The notes beneath the pieces are model-generated. The model did no database searches. It was not told the DNA's origin and was given only the letters and a program-made list of their open reading frames with translations. From the NCBI GenBank assembly GCA_016185525.1, contig JACPNK010000002.1, positions 75,616 through 139,615 on the forward strand: a DNA stretch of 64,000 bases, given 5' to 3'. The DNA is from Candidatus Yanofskybacteria bacterium (GTDB lineage: Bacteria; Patescibacteriota; Minisyncoccia; 2-02-FULL-40-12; IGHO2-12-FULL-4). Position numbers and translations under genes: made by a program. Below are positions 49,629 to 59,558 of this stretch, piece after piece (positions within the stretch are counted from its first letter, which is position 1; every line of letters starts with the position of its first letter).

Positions 49629-50162
49629 TTAATTCTCCTTTCTTTTTCTGTTTTGCTTTTGAACCTGCCGCATCATTTCTTGATGAGTCGGCCAACCGAT
49701 TTCGGGCGGGTTTTTAATGTCAAACCAGTTTACTTCTTTATTTTCCTGCGGGTCGTTATTCCTAATTTTGCCTTTAGCTGTTGCGTAATAGAAAAATACG
49801 AGATGCCCCGGGCTTCGCGGGTCTTCATTTGATTCGGTAAAATTGATAAATCTGGCTTTTATGACAACAAGCCCCGTTTCCTGCTCCACCTCTCTCTTGA
49901 GAGCGGCTTCCGGATGTTCTCGATACTCCACAAAACCTGCCGGAAAATTCCAAGTATTCTTATATGGGTCTCGATTGCGCTTCACCAAAAGAATCTTGTT
50001 TCTCCTGATTATCAAGCCAACCGAAGCCAAGCCGACGGTCGGGTAATGAGTCCAGCAGTTGCAGTAAGTACAGACCTTTCTTGGCGTTCCGTCCGTTGTC
50101 CAGACAGAAAGCCGGCTGGCGCAATACGGGCAGTATTCGTAATCGGATAATGTAATTGGCAT
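49629..50162 (-). CDS. NUDIX hydrolase with N-terminal zinc-ribbon
   Basis: Nudix box AGFVEYREHPEAALKREVEQETGL; CPYC...CTYC. Confidence 0.8.
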   Translation of the reverse strand: MPITLSDYEYCPYCASRLSVWTTDGTPRKVCTYCNCWTHYPTVGLASVGLIIRRNKILLVKRNRDPYKNTWNFPAGFVEYREHPEAALKREVEQETGLVVIKARFINFTESNEDPRSPGHLVFFYYATAKGKIRNNDPQENKEVNWFDIKNPPEIGWPTHQEMMRQVQKQNRKRKEN

Positions 50163-50302
50163 AATTTTTTCCTGTTTTTTTAAAGTGCAAGCCGTTTTTA
50201 AAATAGCACAAGAGTTACTATAATGTCAAGGAAAACGTCACTAACGGGGAAGTTTTGTGTAAGTAAAAAGCCGGCAACCAGCCAGCTTTAAAAAGATACA
50301 CC

Positions 50303-52237
50303 TCAAACATCAGTAATTTTTCTGGCTCTGATTTGAGCCAAAAATACATCGGTATTTTCAATAAGTCCCCTTTGCAAAATTCCTTGGATAATATCCTTAA
50401 CGTTCGGGGGGAGGAGTTGTCTGGAAGAACACTCGAGTAATCCGACTTCGGTCATGAAGTCAATTGTCGCTTGTGAAGCGCTCGGTATAAAGTCGTCAAC
50501 TGCTTGATTTAGAGACTTTACATCAACATTTTGACCGCCCGCAAATCTGAATGAGGCGAGAACAATTGCCTCTATATCTGCTCCGGAAAAACCGTCAGTT
50601 TTCTTTGCAAAAGGCACAAAGTCCTTAATATCAGTCGGGATGCCATACCTCTTAAACATCACCCTGAAAATATCCGGCAATTCTTCGGTTGAGGGCATTG
50701 GAATCAAAATTCTCTGATCTCCGCGGCCGCTGCGCTTCAGCGCTGCATCAATACGGTCGGGCCTGTTAGTGCAAGATATTACTACTATCTGGCCTCTGAT
50801 TCTCGGATCAGACAAGAATTCCATCCACATCTTCATTAAGTGTTCTGTAACATTAGAGTCTCCTTTGGGGGTATCTCGTTGGGCGTCGGCCAGATCAGCT
50901 TCGTCATTCATGACAACAACCGGTGTCAGCGACCGCAAAGCATAAATAAATTTTTGCATGCGGGCTTCAGATTCGCCAACCCACATTGAACGTATATTTT
51001 TGGTTTTAATGAAGTTGAACGATGCTTCTTTTGCCAGAGCTTCTACCAATGCTGTTTTTCCGGTTCCGGGCGGACCCATCAAATAAACACCCATCGGCAC
51101 AAGGCGATACTCTGCCTTTTTAATGGCGTCAAGAACTGATTGAAAATAACTTTTTACATAAGACAGCCCGCCGATGTCTTCAAAGCCGCGTTGGGCATCG
51201 ACAATTTCCATTAATTCGCCGTATTCAGTGTTCAGAATAGTCTTTTTTCGATCCTTTACGAAATCTAAGCTTAATGGCTCACCGGTTTTTAGCGCTTGCA
51301 GAAAAATTTCGTAGATTTGTTTAAAGCTCATGCCTTGTGTGGCATGGCCGAAAACAGCAGTATCAAAGTCGTCCGGCAGTACAATCACGGAATCTGAATC
51401 TGCCATCTGTTCGCGTAATTGCTTTGCTTTATATTCTAACTGCGATTTTTTACTACCCCTAGCATTTTTAACCTGTTTTTCTACTTTAGCCAAATCTGTT
51501 GCCAATTCGGCTTTTTCTCTAGCCTTCAACGTGGCGTTGGAAATAAAATCAATTCTTTCCGGTTTTGTCGGCTTGGGAATAAAAACCTGATAAAAACCAG
51601 ATCCATTCCCTCTCAGTTCAACAGAGATTTTACTTATATCGTCTGTCAGCAAGAGAATAAGGTTGTTGCTTTTCCTGTACCAAGTGCTCTTGCTCCAATT
51701 AATCAGCATTTGGATATTGACTCTGTCATTTTGCGGAAGCAGCGCATTTGCGCCGGGATTCGGGGCAACGAAGTGCGCTGATCGGATAATTACCGCGACA
51801 TTTTCGCATTTACCCAGTACTTTACTAATTAGTGGCAGACAGGCATTTGGATCTTGGGGCAAGCCTCGTTTTGCAGCAAGGCCAGCCTTTGCCGCGGCGA
51901 TTGGATCCGCGCTTGTGTCGTCTTCTGATTCCAGTCCGCAGACTTTTTTGAAATCCTTTTCCATTTTCGGATTCAGAAATTTCATGCCGGCAGCAAGATC
52001 ATAGATAATAACGATTCGTCTCTCGTCAAAAATACTTTTGAGGAACTCCAGGAAAGTAATGTAAGCGCGACCGGGTTCGTCCTCGCAATTTGGATTTAGA
52101 ACCAAACCGTCGGTGTCACCATGGAAAATAAATGCATGAGCCAAGCCGGACCTGAATGGCAGTAGGAATTCTTTTTTCAGCCATTCCGGCGCTTTATACT
52201 CTAAAGCTTTTACATCTTCGGTTTTGTCGGTTTTCAT
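50303..52237 (-). CDS. classical-clade AAA+ ATPase with ~350-aa unknown N-terminal domain
   Basis: Walker A GPPGTGKT, Walker B VVVMNDEADL, sensor-1 SCTNRP, Arg finger RSGRGD. Confidence 0.85.
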   Translation of the reverse strand: MKTDKTEDVKALEYKAPEWLKKEFLLPFRSGLAHAFIFHGDTDGLVLNPNCEDEPGRAYITFLEFLKSIFDERRIVIIYDLAAGMKFLNPKMEKDFKKVCGLESEDDTSADPIAAAKAGLAAKRGLPQDPNACLPLISKVLGKCENVAVIIRSAHFVAPNPGANALLPQNDRVNIQMLINWSKSTWYRKSNNLILLLTDDISKISVELRGNGSGFYQVFIPKPTKPERIDFISNATLKAREKAELATDLAKVEKQVKNARGSKKSQLEYKAKQLREQMADSDSVIVLPDDFDTAVFGHATQGMSFKQIYEIFLQALKTGEPLSLDFVKDRKKTILNTEYGELMEIVDAQRGFEDIGGLSYVKSYFQSVLDAIKKAEYRLVPMGVYLMGPPGTGKTALVEALAKEASFNFIKTKNIRSMWVGESEARMQKFIYALRSLTPVVVMNDEADLADAQRDTPKGDSNVTEHLMKMWMEFLSDPRIRGQIVVISCTNRPDRIDAALKRSGRGDQRILIPMPSTEELPDIFRVMFKRYGIPTDIKDFVPFAKKTDGFSGADIEAIVLASFRFAGGQNVDVKSLNQAVDDFIPSASQATIDFMTEVGLLECSSRQLLPPNVKDIIQGILQRGLIENTDVFLAQIRARKITDV

Positions 52238-52238
52238 G

Positions 52239-52913
52239 TTAAGACCTCACATGTAAAAAATGCTGGTGTTCCACATTTTGTGGAATCGGTTGTCCTGATT
52301 CGTGTTCTTCTGATAAGGCGATTTTAACACCAAACTTTTTAGCCAAAGTTAAAAACTTTGACCGCTCTTCTTTCAATGAAGAGGCCGAGTCAAAATGTTC
52401 AAAAGCTAAGACTCCCTCGCCCGTAGTTCCAACGGAAACTTTTAAGTATCTATGGACGTTCGCGTCCTCATTTTTCTCACCCTCAAGGATTATTGTCTTT
52501 TGACCGTCGATTGTTTTTTCAGAAACTACAATCGTATAATCCAATAACTGGGCAATTACTCCGGTAACTTCTATCTGAAATCTTTCGGAAACCTTTTTGG
52601 CTATGGCCTCAATTTTTCTTTTTTCTACAGCTTCGGTGTATTTAGATTTGATTTCCAATTCTCCGTTGCGAATAAGAAACTCAACTTTCCCAATTTTATC
52701 TACGGCTTCTAACGCGCGCTCGAGAGCCGTATTTAACAGAGGATTAATGTCCAAGTCAGATGCCCACTCTAAGAAAACAACATCAGTTACTCCCATATTT
52801 TCCAATAAGTCTTTGGTTATTTTGGGGGCTTTTGATCTTTCTTTAAATTCGTTGACAATCTTGGGTTCTACACGGATTGTAGTAATATTTTTGTATCCGA
52901 TATCACAAGGCAT
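52239..52913 (-). CDS. hypothetical protein (224 aa) co-transcribed with AAA+ gene
   Basis: 1-nt intergenic gap to AAA gene; own promoter TTGCCA-N17-TAATAC (52953-52981, minus). Confidence 0.5.
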   Translation of the reverse strand: MPCDIGYKNITTIRVEPKIVNEFKERSKAPKITKDLLENMGVTDVVFLEWASDLDINPLLNTALERALEAVDKIGKVEFLIRNGELEIKSKYTEAVEKRKIEAIAKKVSERFQIEVTGVIAQLLDYTIVVSEKTIDGQKTIILEGEKNEDANVHRYLKVSVGTTGEGVLAFEHFDSASSLKEERSKFLTLAKKFGVKIALSEEHESGQPIPQNVEHQHFLHVRS

Positions 52914-52981
52914 AAGTTACTCCTTATTTTAAAAGTGCTTGAAAGCAATATCGTATTAGCACACTTTTATTATTTTGGCAA

Positions 52982-53006
52982 GTAAAAAACGCTCTTTGGA
53001 GCGTTG
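52982..53006 (-). terminator. intrinsic terminator aacgctc-tttgg-gagcgtt plus U-run (minus strand) after vWA-2
   Basis: Read directly. Confidence 0.5.
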
Positions 53007-53017
53007 TGTTTTTGCGG

Positions 53018-54019
53018 TTAAACCTTGAGACCGCCGCCTTTTTTAGAAGTATTCTTTTGGGATTGCGCTGGATTTACTGGTCCATCTTTTTTCTTTTGAA
53101 CATTTTTTTCTTTCAACATTGTCTCAAGGGGTTTAAGCGCCTCTGTTACTTGGTTAATTCTTTCTTGTGTTTGCGGCTTATATTTCTTTCCGCCCATTTC
53201 CAATGGCCGGTTTTTCATGTCCTCAACATAACCCGAGAGTGTTCTCTTGCCTGACACCAAAGCTAAAATTCCCAAAGTCAAGTCGGCAATTGCCGTATCG
53301 TCTGGTAATTTAATAACATAATTTTTACCGAGAACTTTTTCCCATTGGGCTACAATTTCAGAATCCAAACCATAGTTATTATAATATCTGTGCAATAAGA
53401 AAACATTATCCATGAATTTGGCTTTTAGCTCAGCAAAGATGACGCTGGTATTTATGTTTTCATGCTGTCCGCCAAAACGCTTTTTTAATTCACTCCCGAG
53501 CAATTGCTCTCTAAATCCTTCATCGCCGGTAAAGAGTAGAATCGGCAGTTGAGCATTTGGCATGTCGCAACAGCGTGCATAGAAATAAGCCATGAATTCA
53601 TAAGATTCAAAATGCTGTCCGCCGCCGCCACCCTCTATCCAGATCTTTTGTAACCAAGGGTCTAAGCTTTTGATTACGGAGAAATCGCAAACCTGCAGTG
53701 GTCCGCGATCTGAAGTGACATCGCCAACGGCCGCTAAGCTCACATCCGGGTCTTCAAGATATTTTTGTTCAACAATTTGTCCCGCGATCATGGGCATTTT
53801 GTCGTAGATTAATTTGGGCAAGGTACCCATAGAACCCGTTACATCGTAAACGTAAACCAGGGGATTTCTATGCGCTGAAACAAGTTTTCGTTCAAAAGGC
53901 AATAAATCATTGGATAATACCGACCGTGACATCTGCTCTTGAGCAAAAGTTGATACACCCGAACTTAGTTTACTAACCACAGAAACATCTCTGTCATAAT
54001 AAGCGCCGCTACTGCCCAT
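53018..54019 (-). CDS. von Willebrand factor A (vWA) domain protein, paralog 2, C-terminus KKGGGLKV
   Basis: MIDAS-like VYDVTGSMG, AVGDVTSDR, EGGGGGQHFESY (GGT-type) motifs; own promoter TTGACA-N17-TATAAA (54057-54085, minus); ATG 54019. Confidence 0.6.
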   Translation of the reverse strand: MGSSGAYYDRDVSVVSKLSSGVSTFAQEQMSRSVLSNDLLPFERKLVSAHRNPLVYVYDVTGSMGTLPKLIYDKMPMIAGQIVEQKYLEDPDVSLAAVGDVTSDRGPLQVCDFSVIKSLDPWLQKIWIEGGGGGQHFESYEFMAYFYARCCDMPNAQLPILLFTGDEGFREQLLGSELKKRFGGQHENINTSVIFAELKAKFMDNVFLLHRYYNNYGLDSEIVAQWEKVLGKNYVIKLPDDTAIADLTLGILALVSGKRTLSGYVEDMKNRPLEMGGKKYKPQTQERINQVTEALKPLETMLKEKNVQKKKDGPVNPAQSQKNTSKKGGGLKV

Positions 54020-54127
54020 AAAGTTTCCTTTTTTGTTTTTAAATAACAGCAAATACTTTATACCAATTACACTCTTCTCTGTCAAGCACAACGCAACGGC
54101 GCCAATAAAAAATCCAGCATAGTTGGA

Positions 54128-55159
54128 TTAAACTTTGAGACCGCCGCCTTTTTTATCTTTCTTCGGCTCTTTATCTTTAGCTTTCGTAACGAACGATGTT
54201 ACAGTATCGCCTTTTTTGTCTTTATTTATTCCGTAAAGTTTAACAAAAGCATTTTGGGAAATCTCTAAGTACTCTTTGCCGACGCCTTTCTTTTTGAGGT
54301 TCTCAACCGCTTCTTGAGGGCTGACCTTGCCTTCGCAAACACCGACGATTGTCCCGATGAGTTCGCAGATCTGGCTTGTTTTTTCCATACCCATTACAAA
54401 CTCTTCACCGAGTAGTCCTCTCCACGTGCTCCAGATTTCCGGATCGCGACCATTATTGGTTTCGCGAGGAATGATGTAGATAACGACATATTTTTTATTT
54501 GCTTCCTCAATGATTTTTTTCAACGGAATATTTTCATCCGGTCCGAAACCGCCCATTAAATCTTTGATTTCCGAAGCCCGGACATTATTGTAAGGCAGTT
54601 CATCGCCGAACATAATAAAGTAGCCTTTTTTACCGCGCTTTTCAAAACAATCGATTTGAGTGTGCCGCGCCATATAATAAAGCGCGTTTTGATATGACTC
54701 AGTGTTTTGTCCGCCGCCGCCGCCTTCCAGGTAAACTCTCTGGAAGAAATTCATCAGTTCTTGAGCGCCGGATTCAAATTGTCCGACTTGGAACGGAACC
54801 CGATCACAAGTTGAATCGCCGACAGCGCTGAACATGACGGCAACATCGGGCAAGTAATTTTTCTCAAGAAGATAGCCCATAAGATCTTTCAGATTGGGTT
54901 CCAATTCCTTGGGGACATTTAACAGCGATCCGGTAACATCAAACCAAAGAGCTAAAGCGTTGGATTGGGGATGGGCATCGCTATCGCGAGACTCCCTGTT
55001 CCGTCGAAATTCTTCTGCGATTGAAAGTTTTTCGTGGCATACTGCGCTAGTACGTCCTTGTCGTATGTCTGCGGTTCTGGCAAAAGTGTCTTTTCCACTG
55101 TCTTTAATAGTTTTTTTTGTCTTCAATAAATCTTCATCGCTATAAGTTCTATAGCCCAT
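54128..55159 (-). CDS. vWA domain protein, paralog 1, C-terminus KKGGGLKV
   Basis: WFDVTGSLL, AVGDSTCDR, EGGGGGQNTESY; K/E-rich tail. Confidence 0.6.
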   Translation of the reverse strand: MGYRTYSDEDLLKTKKTIKDSGKDTFARTADIRQGRTSAVCHEKLSIAEEFRRNRESRDSDAHPQSNALALWFDVTGSLLNVPKELEPNLKDLMGYLLEKNYLPDVAVMFSAVGDSTCDRVPFQVGQFESGAQELMNFFQRVYLEGGGGGQNTESYQNALYYMARHTQIDCFEKRGKKGYFIMFGDELPYNNVRASEIKDLMGGFGPDENIPLKKIIEEANKKYVVIYIIPRETNNGRDPEIWSTWRGLLGEEFVMGMEKTSQICELIGTIVGVCEGKVSPQEAVENLKKKGVGKEYLEISQNAFVKLYGINKDKKGDTVTSFVTKAKDKEPKKDKKGGGLKV

Positions 55160-55182
55160 GTCTCCTCCTTATTTTAAAAGGT

Positions 55183-55241
55183 CAGTATCGCGAATTACGA
55201 TACTGACCCAAGATACAGCTATATTAAAATTTTGTCAAATG
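55183..55241 (-). promoter_or_regulatory. promoter TTGACA-N17-TATCTT followed immediately by 5'-terminal hairpin GGTCAGTATCG-N7-CGATACTGACC and UUUU before SD
   Basis: Perfect 11-bp stem at 55183-55211 located between -10 and AAGGAGGAGAC-ATG of vWA-1. Confidence 0.5.
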
Positions 55242-55308
55242 GCATTGCCAAGTCATAATATCTATGGTATTGTTTTGGCAATCTTTGACAATTGAATAGA
55301 GGCGCCGA

Positions 55309-57267
55309 ATGTTTACAAGAATGCCGCCACCGATGGATTTACTTCTTTTAAGCGGTTCTGTTTTAGACTCGCCTTGGCCTAAAAGAATCAGAGATAATCT
55401 AGGCATAATACAAAAAGCTGAAATGAGAAGAAAACTATATACCGATTTTCAGGGAATTTTTAAAAGGATTCCGGAAGTAAAAATGGATATTAGTGAAGCC
55501 ATTGGTTCTGGCTTGATAGACCAAACCAATGTTGCCAGAATCTATGACAATTTAACAGAATTTCTTTTAAGCGACATTGATCACGCACGATTAATTCTGT
55601 ATTTGCCTTTTGAACTTTTACCAAACAGAAAATTGAGTATTTTTTGTTCCGGTCCGTTAAGTTTGGCATCTGATAAATTTATTGAGGCGTATATTCTAAG
55701 TTGGAGAGAACTGCTCAACGAAAGTGACTTTCGGGCTGATTATGTTGACGGGGATATATTAGAATACGAGTTGGATGAAGTTGTATTGCCTCATGTGAGA
55801 AAGGCAGCCCATCTAATCCCGCAAATGATTAAAAAAAATCTTGTTTCAGTAGCCGATGTTCTGGAAATATTAGAAAAAACAAATGACGAGGTTTTGGTTT
55901 ATAGTATTCTTGATACTTTTCCAACACTTACTGATTTGGGTTTAGTTTCTGAAACCGAATGGCGCAGACTTTTCAATTCTGACAATCCCATATTTGATAA
56001 AACCGTTTTGGCTCAATACCAAAATCTAAAATCAAATCCGCCGCGCTCGGAAGCGGAAATCGCAAATGCGGTATTTGGCGGGAAGATTAGTTCAGAACAA
56101 ATGAAGACTTTGACGGAAAGTTTGCGAGTTGACTTATCAAGGATTTCCCTTGATTGCATAAGGGGAGAAATTAAAACAGCGCCAAAATCTAGAATTGATT
56201 GGTTGAGAAAAGAAAGACAGTCCAAGTGTCTTGAAGAGTACGGCATCCTTTTGGCCGAATCGTTGCTAAACAATAAAATTAAGGCAAAAGATATTACCGT
56301 TTTATTGAAGAAAGAAAACAGCGAAGAACTGCGGATTGCCTGTATTACAGCTGTGCGTATTGCGACCGAAAGATTGACCAAATGTAACAAGGAAAGGGCG
56401 GAGACTATCAAGACTTATTTTGAGCCTTATTTTCTTGCTCTATGGCAAAAAGGTTCAACAAAAATTAAGGACCAGTTATTTATCTTGTGGTCCCATTGGC
56501 TAGCAATTGATTTTATTGATTATCAGTACATTGAGGAAAAGTCGGGTCTAAAAATGCCGCAACTAGATTCCTTTGCGACAGAACAGTTTCTTATCAGTCA
56601 AGATCTAGATGAACTTGGGCCCGTGTTAGAGGATTTTTATTCTCAACCGGAAGCCGGCGCTTTATTTTATCCGGTATTCATATTTTTTGGTTCACGATTA
56701 AAAGGATATTCATTGAACTTTGATTCTGATTTGGACTTAGCCGTATTTATCAGACCCGATACCCCACAAAGCGAAGAATCAAAAATAAGATCTTTGTTGG
56801 AAAAAGTCGGCTCACATCCCAAAATAAGGGGAAGAGTTACAGAATTTTGGCTGGATAAGATCGGCGGACACTTGGAAATAAAAAGTTCGCCAATGACGGA
56901 CGCTTTAATAAAAGACGCGAGGGTGGATAATTCCTGGGCGCATTTATTGCTTTGCGGCATGTGGTGCGGCCAGCCGGAGTCAATAAGAGAATTATACGAA
57001 AAATTGCTGCCAAATTTTTTATTTTCCGCCGGTCAGAGCATTAAAGGCCACAGAGCTAAAAAAATATGGTTGAGAATGATAGAATCGGAAGTTCTCCAGT
57101 ATCGGCTGATGCATAAAGGTTATCAGCGATTTTATCCTCGCGAAGATTGGCGTATAACAGAACATTCCTGGCCAATGGATCCGCACAGCACTTTCTGGGA
57201 CCCGGGTTATAGAAGAGTTGCAAGCAAATTATTCGTGGCCAGAGTTTTCTTGCCGGAATTAAAATAA
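55309..57267 (+). CDS. large protein (652 aa) with C-terminal Pol-beta-superfamily nucleotidyltransferase motif (GlnE/GlnD-like)
   Basis: FIFFGSRLKGYSLNFDSDLDLAVFI = hG[GS]-x9-DxDLxxF NTase signature near residue 475; N-terminal 430 aa helical, unknown. Confidence 0.55.
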   Translation: MFTRMPPPMDLLLLSGSVLDSPWPKRIRDNLGIIQKAEMRRKLYTDFQGIFKRIPEVKMDISEAIGSGLIDQTNVARIYDNLTEFLLSDIDHARLILYLPFELLPNRKLSIFCSGPLSLASDKFIEAYILSWRELLNESDFRADYVDGDILEYELDEVVLPHVRKAAHLIPQMIKKNLVSVADVLEILEKTNDEVLVYSILDTFPTLTDLGLVSETEWRRLFNSDNPIFDKTVLAQYQNLKSNPPRSEAEIANAVFGGKISSEQMKTLTESLRVDLSRISLDCIRGEIKTAPKSRIDWLRKERQSKCLEEYGILLAESLLNNKIKAKDITVLLKKENSEELRIACITAVRIATERLTKCNKERAETIKTYFEPYFLALWQKGSTKIKDQLFILWSHWLAIDFIDYQYIEEKSGLKMPQLDSFATEQFLISQDLDELGPVLEDFYSQPEAGALFYPVFIFFGSRLKGYSLNFDSDLDLAVFIRPDTPQSEESKIRSLLEKVGSHPKIRGRVTEFWLDKIGGHLEIKSSPMTDALIKDARVDNSWAHLLLCGMWCGQPESIRELYEKLLPNFLFSAGQSIKGHRAKKIWLRMIESEVLQYRLMHKGYQRFYPREDWRITEHSWPMDPHSTFWDPGYRRVASKLFVARVFLPELK

Positions 57268-57268
57268 A

Positions 57269-57295
57269 AGTCCTGACAGAGGGACTTTTTTATTA
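57269..57295 (+). terminator. intrinsic terminator aagtcc-tgacagag-ggactt plus TTTTTATT
   Basis: Followed by promoter CTTGACA-N17-TATTTA. Confidence 0.5.
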
Positions 57296-57358
57296 CCAAA
57301 CTTGACATTTTTGTAATAATAATGTATTTATAAATAAAAAGAACCTTAATAATCAGGA

Positions 57359-58315
57359 GTGAAAATGCTCATAGGAACCTTGCCGACTTTGACCAGCGAT
57401 TCTTCCTTATCCTTAGCCGAGAAAATGGTTTCTCATCCGCTGATTTCCGCAGTCCGTTACAACACGGGCGGGGACAGTCCATTCAAGCCGATTGACATAC
57501 TAACACGAGTTAAACAATTAACCGATAAATACGGGAAGGTGTTATATATTGATTTAGAAGGAAGACAATTGCGCGTTGCGCATTGGACTCCGTTTGAGGC
57601 CGGAAGCATAACGCTAAACCGAGATTTCGAGATTGTACCTCCCGCCAGAGTTCACATAAGAAATGCCGGTTGGTTTAATTTGGTTGCGGCAGATTCCGCT
57701 AAAAGAAAAATATATGTTGAAAACGGCCCCAAGTTTGGTCCAGGTCAATACTATTTTGGCGAAAGCCAAAGCGTGCATATTGTCGGCGACAGCTTCAACG
57801 TTCGGGGTTATCTTGGGGGTTTAGACAGCGAATACATAAAAGCTTCAATCAAACTCGGTCTTAATCATTTCATGCTTTCTTTCGTAGAATGCGCGAATGA
57901 TATTAATGAGTTTTACAGGTTTTTTTCCGGAAGACGCGGTTTTAATCAGTTGGTAGTCTTGAAAATAGAATCCCGGGAAGGCCTTAAATTCATTCAAAAG
58001 AAAACACTAGGCTCAAATGAAAAATTAATGGCCGCCAGAGACGATTTGCTTATCAGTTTTGGCGATAATCCGACCGGAATTTTCAAAGCTCTGCAGATGA
58101 TTATTAATGCCGATTCGGATGCCATTTTGGCTTCCAGAATTATGCACGGCATTCAAGATTCCGGCGAGATTGCCATGGGTGATATTTCGGATTTGATTCT
58201 GATGTCGCAGATTGGCTATAAGAATTTTATGTTTTCTGACGGCCTAGCAAAGCATTTTGGTCAAGCCATAAAATCATGGCAGGAAATTCTGCCTCTTTTG
58301 AGAAAAGAGGGTTGA
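57359..58315 (+). CDS. PK-like/HpcH-HpaI-like TIM-barrel protein (PEP/pyruvate-utilising fold)
   Basis: VVLKIESREGL...LMAARDDL resembles pyruvate-kinase/HpcH barrel active-site strand; weak. Confidence 0.4.
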   Translation: MKMLIGTLPTLTSDSSLSLAEKMVSHPLISAVRYNTGGDSPFKPIDILTRVKQLTDKYGKVLYIDLEGRQLRVAHWTPFEAGSITLNRDFEIVPPARVHIRNAGWFNLVAADSAKRKIYVENGPKFGPGQYYFGESQSVHIVGDSFNVRGYLGGLDSEYIKASIKLGLNHFMLSFVECANDINEFYRFFSGRRGFNQLVVLKIESREGLKFIQKKTLGSNEKLMAARDDLLISFGDNPTGIFKALQMIINADSDAILASRIMHGIQDSGEIAMGDISDLILMSQIGYKNFMFSDGLAKHFGQAIKSWQEILPLLRKEG

Positions 58316-58316
58316 T

Positions 58317-59558
58317 ATGCCGAAACGGATGGCAATTATTGTCGGCGGCGGTCTTTTTGGAGACGAGGGCAAGGGCAGTACGGTAGATTATTTAGTCCGA
58401 AGATATGACGCCCATACGGTATTCCGCTACAACGGAGGTTCACAGGCGGCGCATAATGTAGTCACACCCGAAGGACTGCATCATTGTTTTGCGCAATTTG
58501 GTTCGGGTACTCTTGTGCCGGGAATTTTCACATATCTTAGTCAGTTTATGGTTATCGATCCTCTTCGGTTAGTGTCTGAATATGAAACACTTTCCAGTAA
58601 AGGAATTAAAGATGTCATTGAACGGCTGGTTATAAGCAAGAAATGTCCTGTTATAACCCCTTTTCACAAATTTGCCGGTCAAATGAGAGAGTTGGCTCGC
58701 GGAGCAAATAGATTCGGAAGCTGCGGCATGGGTGTTGGAGAAGCGATTAACGATTTCACGGAATCGCCAGGAGATAGTTTAACCATAGGAGATTTAGCAA
58801 GACCTAACGTTCTGCAAAGAAAATTAAAAAAATTGCAAATTAGCAAAATTGTAGTTGGTAAAAAACTATTGGAACCCGAAAGTAACGACAAACTTCAAAA
58901 ATGTTTTGACGAAATCCAATCTCAAAATCTTCTTGAAAGATGTATTGAATCGTATTCTGTTTTTTCTAGTTTTCCAATAAATTTTGATGACGGCACAACA
59001 CTTAAAAGAATTTTAAATCGTCCGGGAACCGTTGTCTTTGAAGGAGCGCAGGGCGCTCTGCTAGACAAAAGCCGGGGCTTTAAACCTTTTATAACCAAAT
59101 CCGATTGTTCTTTCGGAAATGCCGAAAGATTACTGGCCGGTTTTGAAGGAAAAACAATAAAACTAGCTGTTGCACGCGCATATGCGACAAGGCATGGCAG
59201 AGGTCCGTTTGTAACAGAGGATCCGAAACTTACCAAAAAATTGCCCGACACGCATAATGTGACAAATGACTGGCAGGGAAAATTTAGAGTTGGGTGGTTT
59301 GACCTAATTGCATTAAATTATGGTTTGGAAATTTTAGGAAAACCAGACGGTATTGTCTTAACAAATATTGACAGGATTGCAAATTTCGATTCAATAAAAA
59401 TCTGTGATGGCTATAGGACAAAGTCGGGAGAAATTTTCCCAAACTATCTTTACTTCAAAGAAACCGATAAACTCCTTAAATTTTTGAAAGAAAAATTATC
59501 TTTACCCATACTCATTATTTCTCATGGTTCGACATATAAGGATAAGTTAGAAACATAA
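58317..59558 (+). CDS. purA: adenylosuccinate synthetase-family protein (divergent PurA homolog)
   Basis: GDEGKG P-loop, GGSQAAHNV, FEGAQGALLD...FITKSD motifs; 413 aa; starts 2 nt after upstream gene. Confidence 0.75.
   Translation: MPKRMAIIVGGGLFGDEGKGSTVDYLVRRYDAHTVFRYNGGSQAAHNVVTPEGLHHCFAQFGSGTLVPGIFTYLSQFMVIDPLRLVSEYETLSSKGIKDVIERLVISKKCPVITPFHKFAGQMRELARGANRFGSCGMGVGEAINDFTESPGDSLTIGDLARPNVLQRKLKKLQISKIVVGKKLLEPESNDKLQKCFDEIQSQNLLERCIESYSVFSSFPINFDDGTTLKRILNRPGTVVFEGAQGALLDKSRGFKPFITKSDCSFGNAERLLAGFEGKTIKLAVARAYATRHGRGPFVTEDPKLTKKLPDTHNVTNDWQGKFRVGWFDLIALNYGLEILGKPDGIVLTNIDRIANFDSIKICDGYRTKSGEIFPNYLYFKETDKLLKFLKEKLSLPILIISHGSTYKDKLET

Follow-up and report, generated by a model that had tools for sequence, protein, structure and literature searches.

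Concerted evolution by gene conversion classically homogenises long, highly similar genes, as in tufA/tufB and the rRNA operons. Proteins with von Willebrand factor A (vWA) domains are known to be encoded beside AAA+ ATPases in gene pairs such as RavA-ViaA, CbbQ-CbbO and BchI-BchD, and HbYX, ClpX C-motif 2 and class II PDZ ligands are docking or degron motifs at the extreme C-terminus of proteins. Here we describe a locus in a 64,000-nucleotide stretch of a Candidatus Yanofskybacteria genome (contig JACPNK010000002.1; this whole stretch is called the window), in which two tandem, diverged paralogs with a predicted vWA fold, A and B, end in a nearly identical run of 27 nucleotides (the 27-mer). 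We consider it probable that these shared bases reflect a conserved C-terminal peptide motif combined with lineage-specific gene conversion over a short tract.

The tails of A and B resemble tufA/tufB and the rRNA operons in that copies within a genome are closer to each other than to their orthologs, synonymous sites included, and in that this appears to recur along a lineage. In contrast to those systems, the tract here does not exceed 27 nt, lies at the extreme 3′ end and has no flanking homology, and the genes that carry it are 47% identical in DNA (over aligned codons) and 32% identical in protein (BLASTP, 6e-36).

A nearly identical 3′ end in two diverged genes

The pattern AAAAAAGGCGGCGGTCTCAARGTTTAA occurs only twice in the window, both times on the minus strand, and was matched in 0 of 100 dinucleotide-preserving shuffles. 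Each copy of the 27-mer consists of the final eight codons and the TAA stop of one paralog (KKGGGLKV*; coordinates in Table 1). Both copies read AAA twice, GGC twice, then GGT, CTC, a lysine codon, GTT and TAA, and they differ only in that lysine codon, which is AAA in A and AAG in B. The identity begins abruptly: directly before the two AAA codons, one gene reads AAG AAA GAT and the other AAT ACT TCT. A reading of the window made from its letters alone (the sequence-only reading) had pointed to these near-identical ends and to their sharp upstream boundary; we confirm both, with coordinates shifted by 1–2 nt.

The tail also stands out within the alignment of the two genes. It contains the longest run of identical DNA (20 nt); the second longest (14 nt) encodes the EGGGGGQ motif, and all others are at most 10 nt. 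Assuming identical peptides and the window's own codon usage, 27 nt would show no more than one mismatch with a probability of 0.0025, and against the background of the A/B pair itself, in which 45% of codons are identical at identical residues, the probability of sharing at least 8 of 9 codons is 0.008. Because of these two values, the identity of the tails exceeds what peptide conservation alone would predict, and the earlier premise that selection on a peptide leaves synonymous sites free is thus sound. Two invariant motifs make the same point, since A and B share only 1 of 5 codons in DVTGS and 4 of 7 in EGGGGGQ; strong peptide constraint alone does not fix codons here.

Codon usage bears on a simpler explanation, namely that no DNA was copied, that the tails converged on one peptide for a common partner, and that the matching codons are the product of codon bias and chance. 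The window uses AAA, GGC, GTT and TAA more often than any other codon for lysine, glycine, valine and stop, respectively, as that explanation would have it, whereas the shared leucine codon CTC is rare (7%). We regard convergence of this kind as rather unlikely, for reasons that come from the comparison with other genomes given below. The same usage accounts for the base composition of the repeat. The window has a GC content of 41%, GGC is its commonest glycine codon (40%), and the G+C of the 27-mer comes from three glycine codons; the description of the segment as GC-rich in an AT-rich genome was therefore overstated.

Tail peptide and codons in orthologous loci

Both tails were recovered from the window and from seven further genomes or populations (loci L001/L004, L089, L090, L002, L007, L003 and L008), and L091 supplied a B tail only. 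L001 and L004 represent the same population (99.8% identical), with 84.5% DNA identity to the window. Scans of genome and metagenome contigs with single proteins returned 0 and 1 loci, respectively, and a scan based on an alignment was required. Every A and B tail that was recovered ends in L-K-[IV], and further members of the clusters of the closest orthologs contributed no new tail variants.

In the six deeper genomes (L002, L003, L007, L008, L089 and L090), the codons of A and B match at 14 of 31 identical tail residues. This proportion is indistinguishable from the codon identity of the gene bodies in the same genomes (39–48%), and synonymous sites therefore vary freely there. In L002, for example, glycine, leucine, lysine, isoleucine and stop are encoded by GGA, CTA, AAA, ATC and TAA in one paralog and by GGG, CTT, AAA, ATT and TAA in the other; in L007 the tails end in TTA, AAA, ATC and TAA versus CTG, AAA, ATT and TAG. 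By comparison, identical tail codons number 8 of 9 in the window and 7 of 7 in L001 (Fisher p = 0.001 against the six others). The aligned tails thus show a peptide that is conserved while its codons vary freely in other genomes.

This outcome bears directly on the possibility, raised by the sequence-only reading, that the 27-mer is a small RNA (sRNA) or protein binding site. Orthologs keep the LK[IV] ending while synonymous sites vary freely, the very outcome that the sequence-only reading had named as a refutation, and a nucleic-acid element of the kind proposed thus finds no support. A more recent, lineage-specific element, such as an sRNA or RNA-binding protein site or a signal for translation or mRNA stability under selection at the RNA or DNA level, would fit the preservation of synonymous sites in two genomes, and a co-evolving trans-acting partner would fit the co-variation of the leucine third position. 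We nevertheless consider such an element highly unlikely. Nucleotide conservation is absent from the six deeper orthologous pairs, and neither a further copy nor a complementary copy of the 27-mer with at most 3 mismatches was present within the window; the 27-mer was not found in a viral contig collection, either. Furthermore, the two copies fold differently (111 nt each; z = 0.13 and -1.5, no better than shuffles), Rfam gave no match at E≤1 across 52000-55500, and the 3′ contexts differ, in that B is followed by a strong terminator-like hairpin whereas no such hairpin was detected behind A.

The same loci speak to a second proposal, that A6-GGCGGCGG is a site of programmed frameshifting or transcriptional slippage that gives rise to alternative C-termini. 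In both genes a run of six A is indeed followed by a G+C-rich stretch, seven codons before the stop. The phase, however, is wrong: A6G is read as XXX YYY Z, whereas -1 sites are read as X XXY YYZ. The shifted frames would yield peptides of 21 and 37 residues that have in common only the seven residues AAVS[KR]FN encoded by the identical bases, and no stimulatory structure was predicted. In addition, the A6 run is missing from L002_B, L003, L007, L008 and one paralog of L090, all of which retain the tail peptide. Transcriptional slippage usually requires runs longer than A6. We therefore give this recoding signal hardly any credence.

The last residue of the tail is itself informative. It is valine in the window, L001, L089 and L091, which are the closest four genomes, and isoleucine in all deeper ones, and it agrees between the paralogs wherever both tails were recovered. 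In L089 the two paralogs reach valine by different codons (GTC followed by TGA in A, GTT followed by TAG in B), each a one-step derivative of the usual state of its own family (ATC in A, ATT in B). This change from isoleucine to valine in both paralogs with different codons, seen in L089 only, argues for selection on the peptide, and it shows that convergence at the peptide level does occur. The pattern points to co-evolution of the A and B tails at the level of the peptide, as if both had to fit one receptor.

The tails relate differently in the window and in L001, its closest relative. The A tail of the window is identical to B tails at 26 (window), 24 (L001) and 24 (L091) of 27 positions and to its own A orthologs at 21, 21 and 12; likewise, the A tail of L001 matches B of L001 at 24 of 27 positions and A of the window at 21. 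The ending GGLK[IV] is typical of B, while A tails mostly read K[GT]LKI. Pooling the window and L001, 15 of 16 tail codons are identical between paralogs, compared with 45% in the gene bodies. When sites were sorted by the pattern that they form among the four genes of these two genomes, the gene bodies gave 349 orthology, 9 concerted and 9 cross patterns; the tail gave none of the orthology type and two concerted sites (GGC/GGC versus AAC/AGC, and CTC/CTC versus CTA/CTA). The tail is the sole ungapped 27-nt stretch with at most 3 orthology sites, the mean being 9.9. In the tail tract, then, paralogs within a genome are closer than orthologs between genomes, and synonymous sites are homogenised between abrupt boundaries. 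The alignments show that the A tail of this lineage resembles B tails more than its own orthologs, and that homogenisation is confined, among the genomes compared, to the shallow lineage of the window and its closest relative.

These site patterns are difficult to reconcile with two tails that converged on one peptide and drew the same codons by bias and chance. The leucine codon, rare in the window, co-varies between paralogs (CTC in both in the window, CTA in both in L001). The A genes of the window and L001 carry the B-like states GGT, GTT and TAA, whereas A of L089 has none of the three (GGC, GTC and TGA) and A of L090 lacks GTT and TAA (ATC and TGA). GGC is present in both window paralogs at a position where B has AGC elsewhere. 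Finally, the peptide is equally constrained in the six other genomes, yet their codon identity does not depart from background.

Several points weigh against conversion of the tract. The homogenised clade is sampled by only two independent genomes, and informative sites are few; two concerted sites correspond to roughly p = 0.03 at a background rate of 1%. The 27-mer was chosen post hoc by a reader looking for oddities, so that nominal p-values are inflated, and values of 0.0025–0.008 are not extreme for a feature picked in this way, which would suit convergence. An RNA partner of the 27-mer, were there one, may be encoded outside the 64-kb window. The tract is no longer than the shortest that RecA-dependent exchange usually requires and has no homology beyond it, and because of this the conversion mechanism is deduced from the pattern.

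On balance we favour the combination of a conserved peptide and local conversion, which would have come about as follows. Both paralogs carry a predicted disordered, lysine-rich linker followed by G-L-K-V-COOH, the local form of a more general [RK]-[LIVF](F)-COOH ending. Selection on the protein would keep this tail, most likely as a site at which a common partner docks or engages, and this partner might be a kinase-like protein in one type of gene module and the pair of a 224-residue protein (p224) and a Cdc48-like ATPase in the other. The tandem genes lie 1.1 kb apart, and copying between them, in one or several very short events, would then have removed synonymous differences along no more than 27 nt, mainly in the direction from B to A, by micro gene conversion or template switching. 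Very local gene conversion was among the options listed by the sequence-only reading, and it is the one that the comparative data favour; its interpretation as a whole is partly supported.

Predicted fold and C-terminal motif of the vWA family

At E≤0.01, Pfam, NCBIfam and PADLOC gave no family for either paralog, and the sole family match of both was phrog_2971, of unknown function. An AlphaFold model of paralog A built from 121 sequences had a predicted local distance difference test score (pLDDT) of 91.8, and Foldseek matched it with probability 1.0 to the CD11b I domain, the vWF A1/A3 domains and collagen VI N5, at template modelling scores (TM-scores, target-normalised) of 0.5–0.65. By fold alone, the paralogs are thus predicted to be vWA proteins, and the earlier label "vWA" stands on the strength of the AlphaFold and Foldseek results and finds no backing in Pfam. 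D74, G77 and S78 show no variation, and T76 hardly any, which gives a motif, DxTxS, that is like the DxSxS of the metal ion-dependent adhesion site (MIDAS). E154-S155 and G185-D186-E187, also invariant, are candidate distal metal ligands. Paralog B represents a distinct subfamily that is widespread in Patescibacteria, Myxococcota and Planctomycetota.

In the model of paralog A, the tail has low confidence (block means <55 from residue 321 and <50 for residues 319-330), and the AlphaFold monomer left it undocked. Across the family, the ending [RK][LIVFY]F?$ terminates 97 of 120 B-family homologs (KKPGRI, KKGRVF, DWKL, GGLKI and others) and 47 of the 120 best A-family homologs, compared with 1 of the 37 other genes of the window. 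In 80 species-representative genomes, A-family proteins mostly end in G-[TV]-x-R-L, and the copy in a mycobacteriophage ends in GADRL; the motif, preceded by a predicted disordered and often lysine-rich linker, ranges from bacteria of the candidate phyla radiation (CPR) to Actinobacteria and mycobacteriophages. The tail has the hallmarks of a short linear motif, namely a fixed place at the free C-terminus, a predicted disordered linker, and retention across paralogs and distant taxa.

The motif is also associated with gene content. Among loci with a readable upstream flank, a kinase-like neighbour was present in 55 of 56 with the tail motif and in 6 of 17 without it (p = 4e-8, uncorrected for phylogeny). 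From this we infer that the tail may dock onto the module's accessory enzyme or be engaged by it. Alternatively, the terminal carboxylate may be an intrinsic ligand of a putative vWA metal site. A large A-family subgroup of Gemmataceae/Planctomycetota (L009, L010, L012, L016 and many further proteins) is 305 residues long, ends in VEVGE or RGRR and has no such motif; it is often without the kinase-like neighbour as well, and the neighbours in L010 are a WD40-PDZ-caspase protein and WD40 proteins.

The tail invites comparison with described C-terminal signals. Like HbYX of proteasomal ATPases, ClpX C-motif 2 (as in MuA, which ends in RRKKAI) and class II PDZ ligands, it places a basic and then a hydrophobic residue at a free C-terminus behind a disordered linker. 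It is not an HbYX motif, since it lacks the penultimate tyrosine. Motifs of this kind are read by AAA+ machines, among others, and modules of the ATPase type encode the tail beside a Cdc48/VAT-like unfoldase; in most phyla, by contrast, the tail travels with the kinase-like protein and without the ATPase. We tentatively propose, as a possibility that falls somewhat short of probable, that the [RK]-hydrophobic-COOH ending is an undescribed docking or engagement motif that couples the vWA and PurA-like system to an accessory enzyme, either the kinase-like protein or p224 with the Cdc48-like unfoldase. If this were true, one receptor for both tails in Yanofskybacteria would drive their co-evolution and would make conversion between them tolerated or even favoured.

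The vWA and PurA-like gene module

The gene most constantly found with the vWA family encodes a divergent adenylosuccinate-synthetase-like (PurA-like) protein, which adjoins the vWA gene in 83 of 93 vWA-carrying loci. Two arrangements recur. The first consists of a kinase-like gene, vWA(A) and the PurA-like gene, and was found in Actinomycetota, Chloroflexota, Planctomycetota and phage QBert (genes 253-255). The second consists of p224, the AAA ATPase, vWA(B), a PK-like gene and the PurA-like gene, and was found in one Myxococcales and one Patescibacteria genome. In Yanofskybacteria the two vWA types stand in tandem and are accompanied by p224, the ATPase, the PK-like gene and the PurA-like gene (49629-59558 of the window; Table 1). 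An all-against-all BLAST clustering of the neighbours was discarded, having produced giant clusters of spurious open reading frames (ORFs) at high-GC loci. Our search found no relevant literature on a module of vWA and adenylosuccinate-synthetase-like proteins. There are hints that the module is linked to nicotinamide adenine dinucleotide (NAD) or nucleotide metabolism.

Table 1. Positions of the repeat copies, the vWA genes and their neighbours in the window (aa, amino acids)
Feature	Position	Strand	Remarks
Classical AAA ATPase, 644 aa	50303..52237	-	Single AAA domain, residues ~330-590, closest to VAT/Cdc48/p97 D2
p224, 224-aa protein	52239..52913	-	Conserved beside the ATPase in modules of ATPase type
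Terminator-like hairpin	52988..53005	.	7-bp, perfect, G+C-rich, T run on either strand; 12 nt past the paralog B stop; outside the repeat
27-mer copy 2	53018..53044	-	3′ end of vWA paralog B
vWA-fold (predicted) paralog B, 334 aa from ATG	53018..54022	-	Mechanical ORF reaches TTG at 54091
27-mer copy 1	54128..54154	-	3′ end of vWA paralog A
vWA-fold (predicted) paralog A, 343 aa	54128..55159	-	Invariant or almost invariant motifs: MIDAS-like D74-x-T76-x-S78, EGGGGGQ and GDE
652-aa protein	55309-57267	+	Divergently transcribed relative to the vWA operon; only a weak Pol-beta/MntA-like nucleotidyltransferase match, residues ~457-500
PK-like, 318 aa	57359..58315	+	Weak pyruvate-kinase-barrel match; conserved beside the PurA-like gene in modules of ATPase type
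PurA-like gene	58317..59558	+	Divergent adenylosuccinate-synthetase-like; near-universal neighbour of the vWA family

The minus strand of the window reads, in order, A, B, the terminator-like hairpin, p224 and the AAA ATPase. The hairpin is possibly a bidirectional terminator between vWA B and the pair of p224 and the ATPase, in which the ATPase start codon abuts the p224 stop. Twenty-four homologs of p224 were found, in Patescibacteria. The protein had no sequence match in Pfam, PHROG or the PDB, and Foldseek matched its AlphaFold model (pLDDT 76) to no PDB entry at E < 0.05; with no recognisable fold, such as a PDZ- or TPR-like one, p224 gives no clue to a receptor of the tail. The N-terminal ~330 residues of the ATPase matched no family. 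By eye, these first ~330 residues resemble an AAA domain that has degenerated (AFIFHGDTDG where Walker A would stand, IIYDL and LILLLTDD).

The pairing of a vWA protein that has an apparently intact MIDAS-like motif with a neighbouring AAA+ ATPase is reminiscent of the MoxR-vWA pairs (RavA-ViaA, CbbQ-CbbO) and of BchI-BchD. The ATPase here, however, belongs to the classical Cdc48/VAT/PAN clade and not to MoxR. Furthermore, the vWA proteins described here differ from those of both known systems in that they escape all Pfam vWA models and in that their constant partner is PurA-like.

Further observations concern the surroundings of the module. In Mycobacterium phage QBert (L092; NC_054720.1, 149162-152629), the triad is annotated as 'kinase', a hypothetical protein (the vWA homolog) and '2-aminooxy adenylosuccinate synthetase'. 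The triad is found in cluster C (Bixzunavirus) mycobacteriophages, with matches in about 200 mycobacteriophage records. Genes related to NAD recur beside the module: upstream on the divergent strand in L003, L005, L006 and L008, at 5250-6415 in L001 and at 6130-6885 in L035. They encode an 807-residue fusion of CN_hydrolase, NAD_synthase and CTP_transf_like domains, NUDIX proteins, one of which (in Micromonospora) has an NrtR winged-helix domain, and an isochorismatase-family protein. The position of the 652-residue protein of the window is likewise filled in L002, L004 and L007, and in other Yanofskybacteria a NadE-NMNAT fusion is found there.

As a nucleotide signal, the 27-mer is largely explained away and ordinary. 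It offers instead a small, clean case in which a conserved C-terminal peptide and a very short conversion tract, if our favoured explanation holds, mimic a nucleic-acid element. The uncharacterised module is a more interesting lead than the repeat: several thousand family members with a predicted vWA fold and no Pfam model carry a fixed C-terminal motif and are encoded nearly always beside a PurA-like enzyme, in a module that spans CPR bacteria, Streptomyces and mycobacteriophages. The tail provides a concrete handle on the function of this module.

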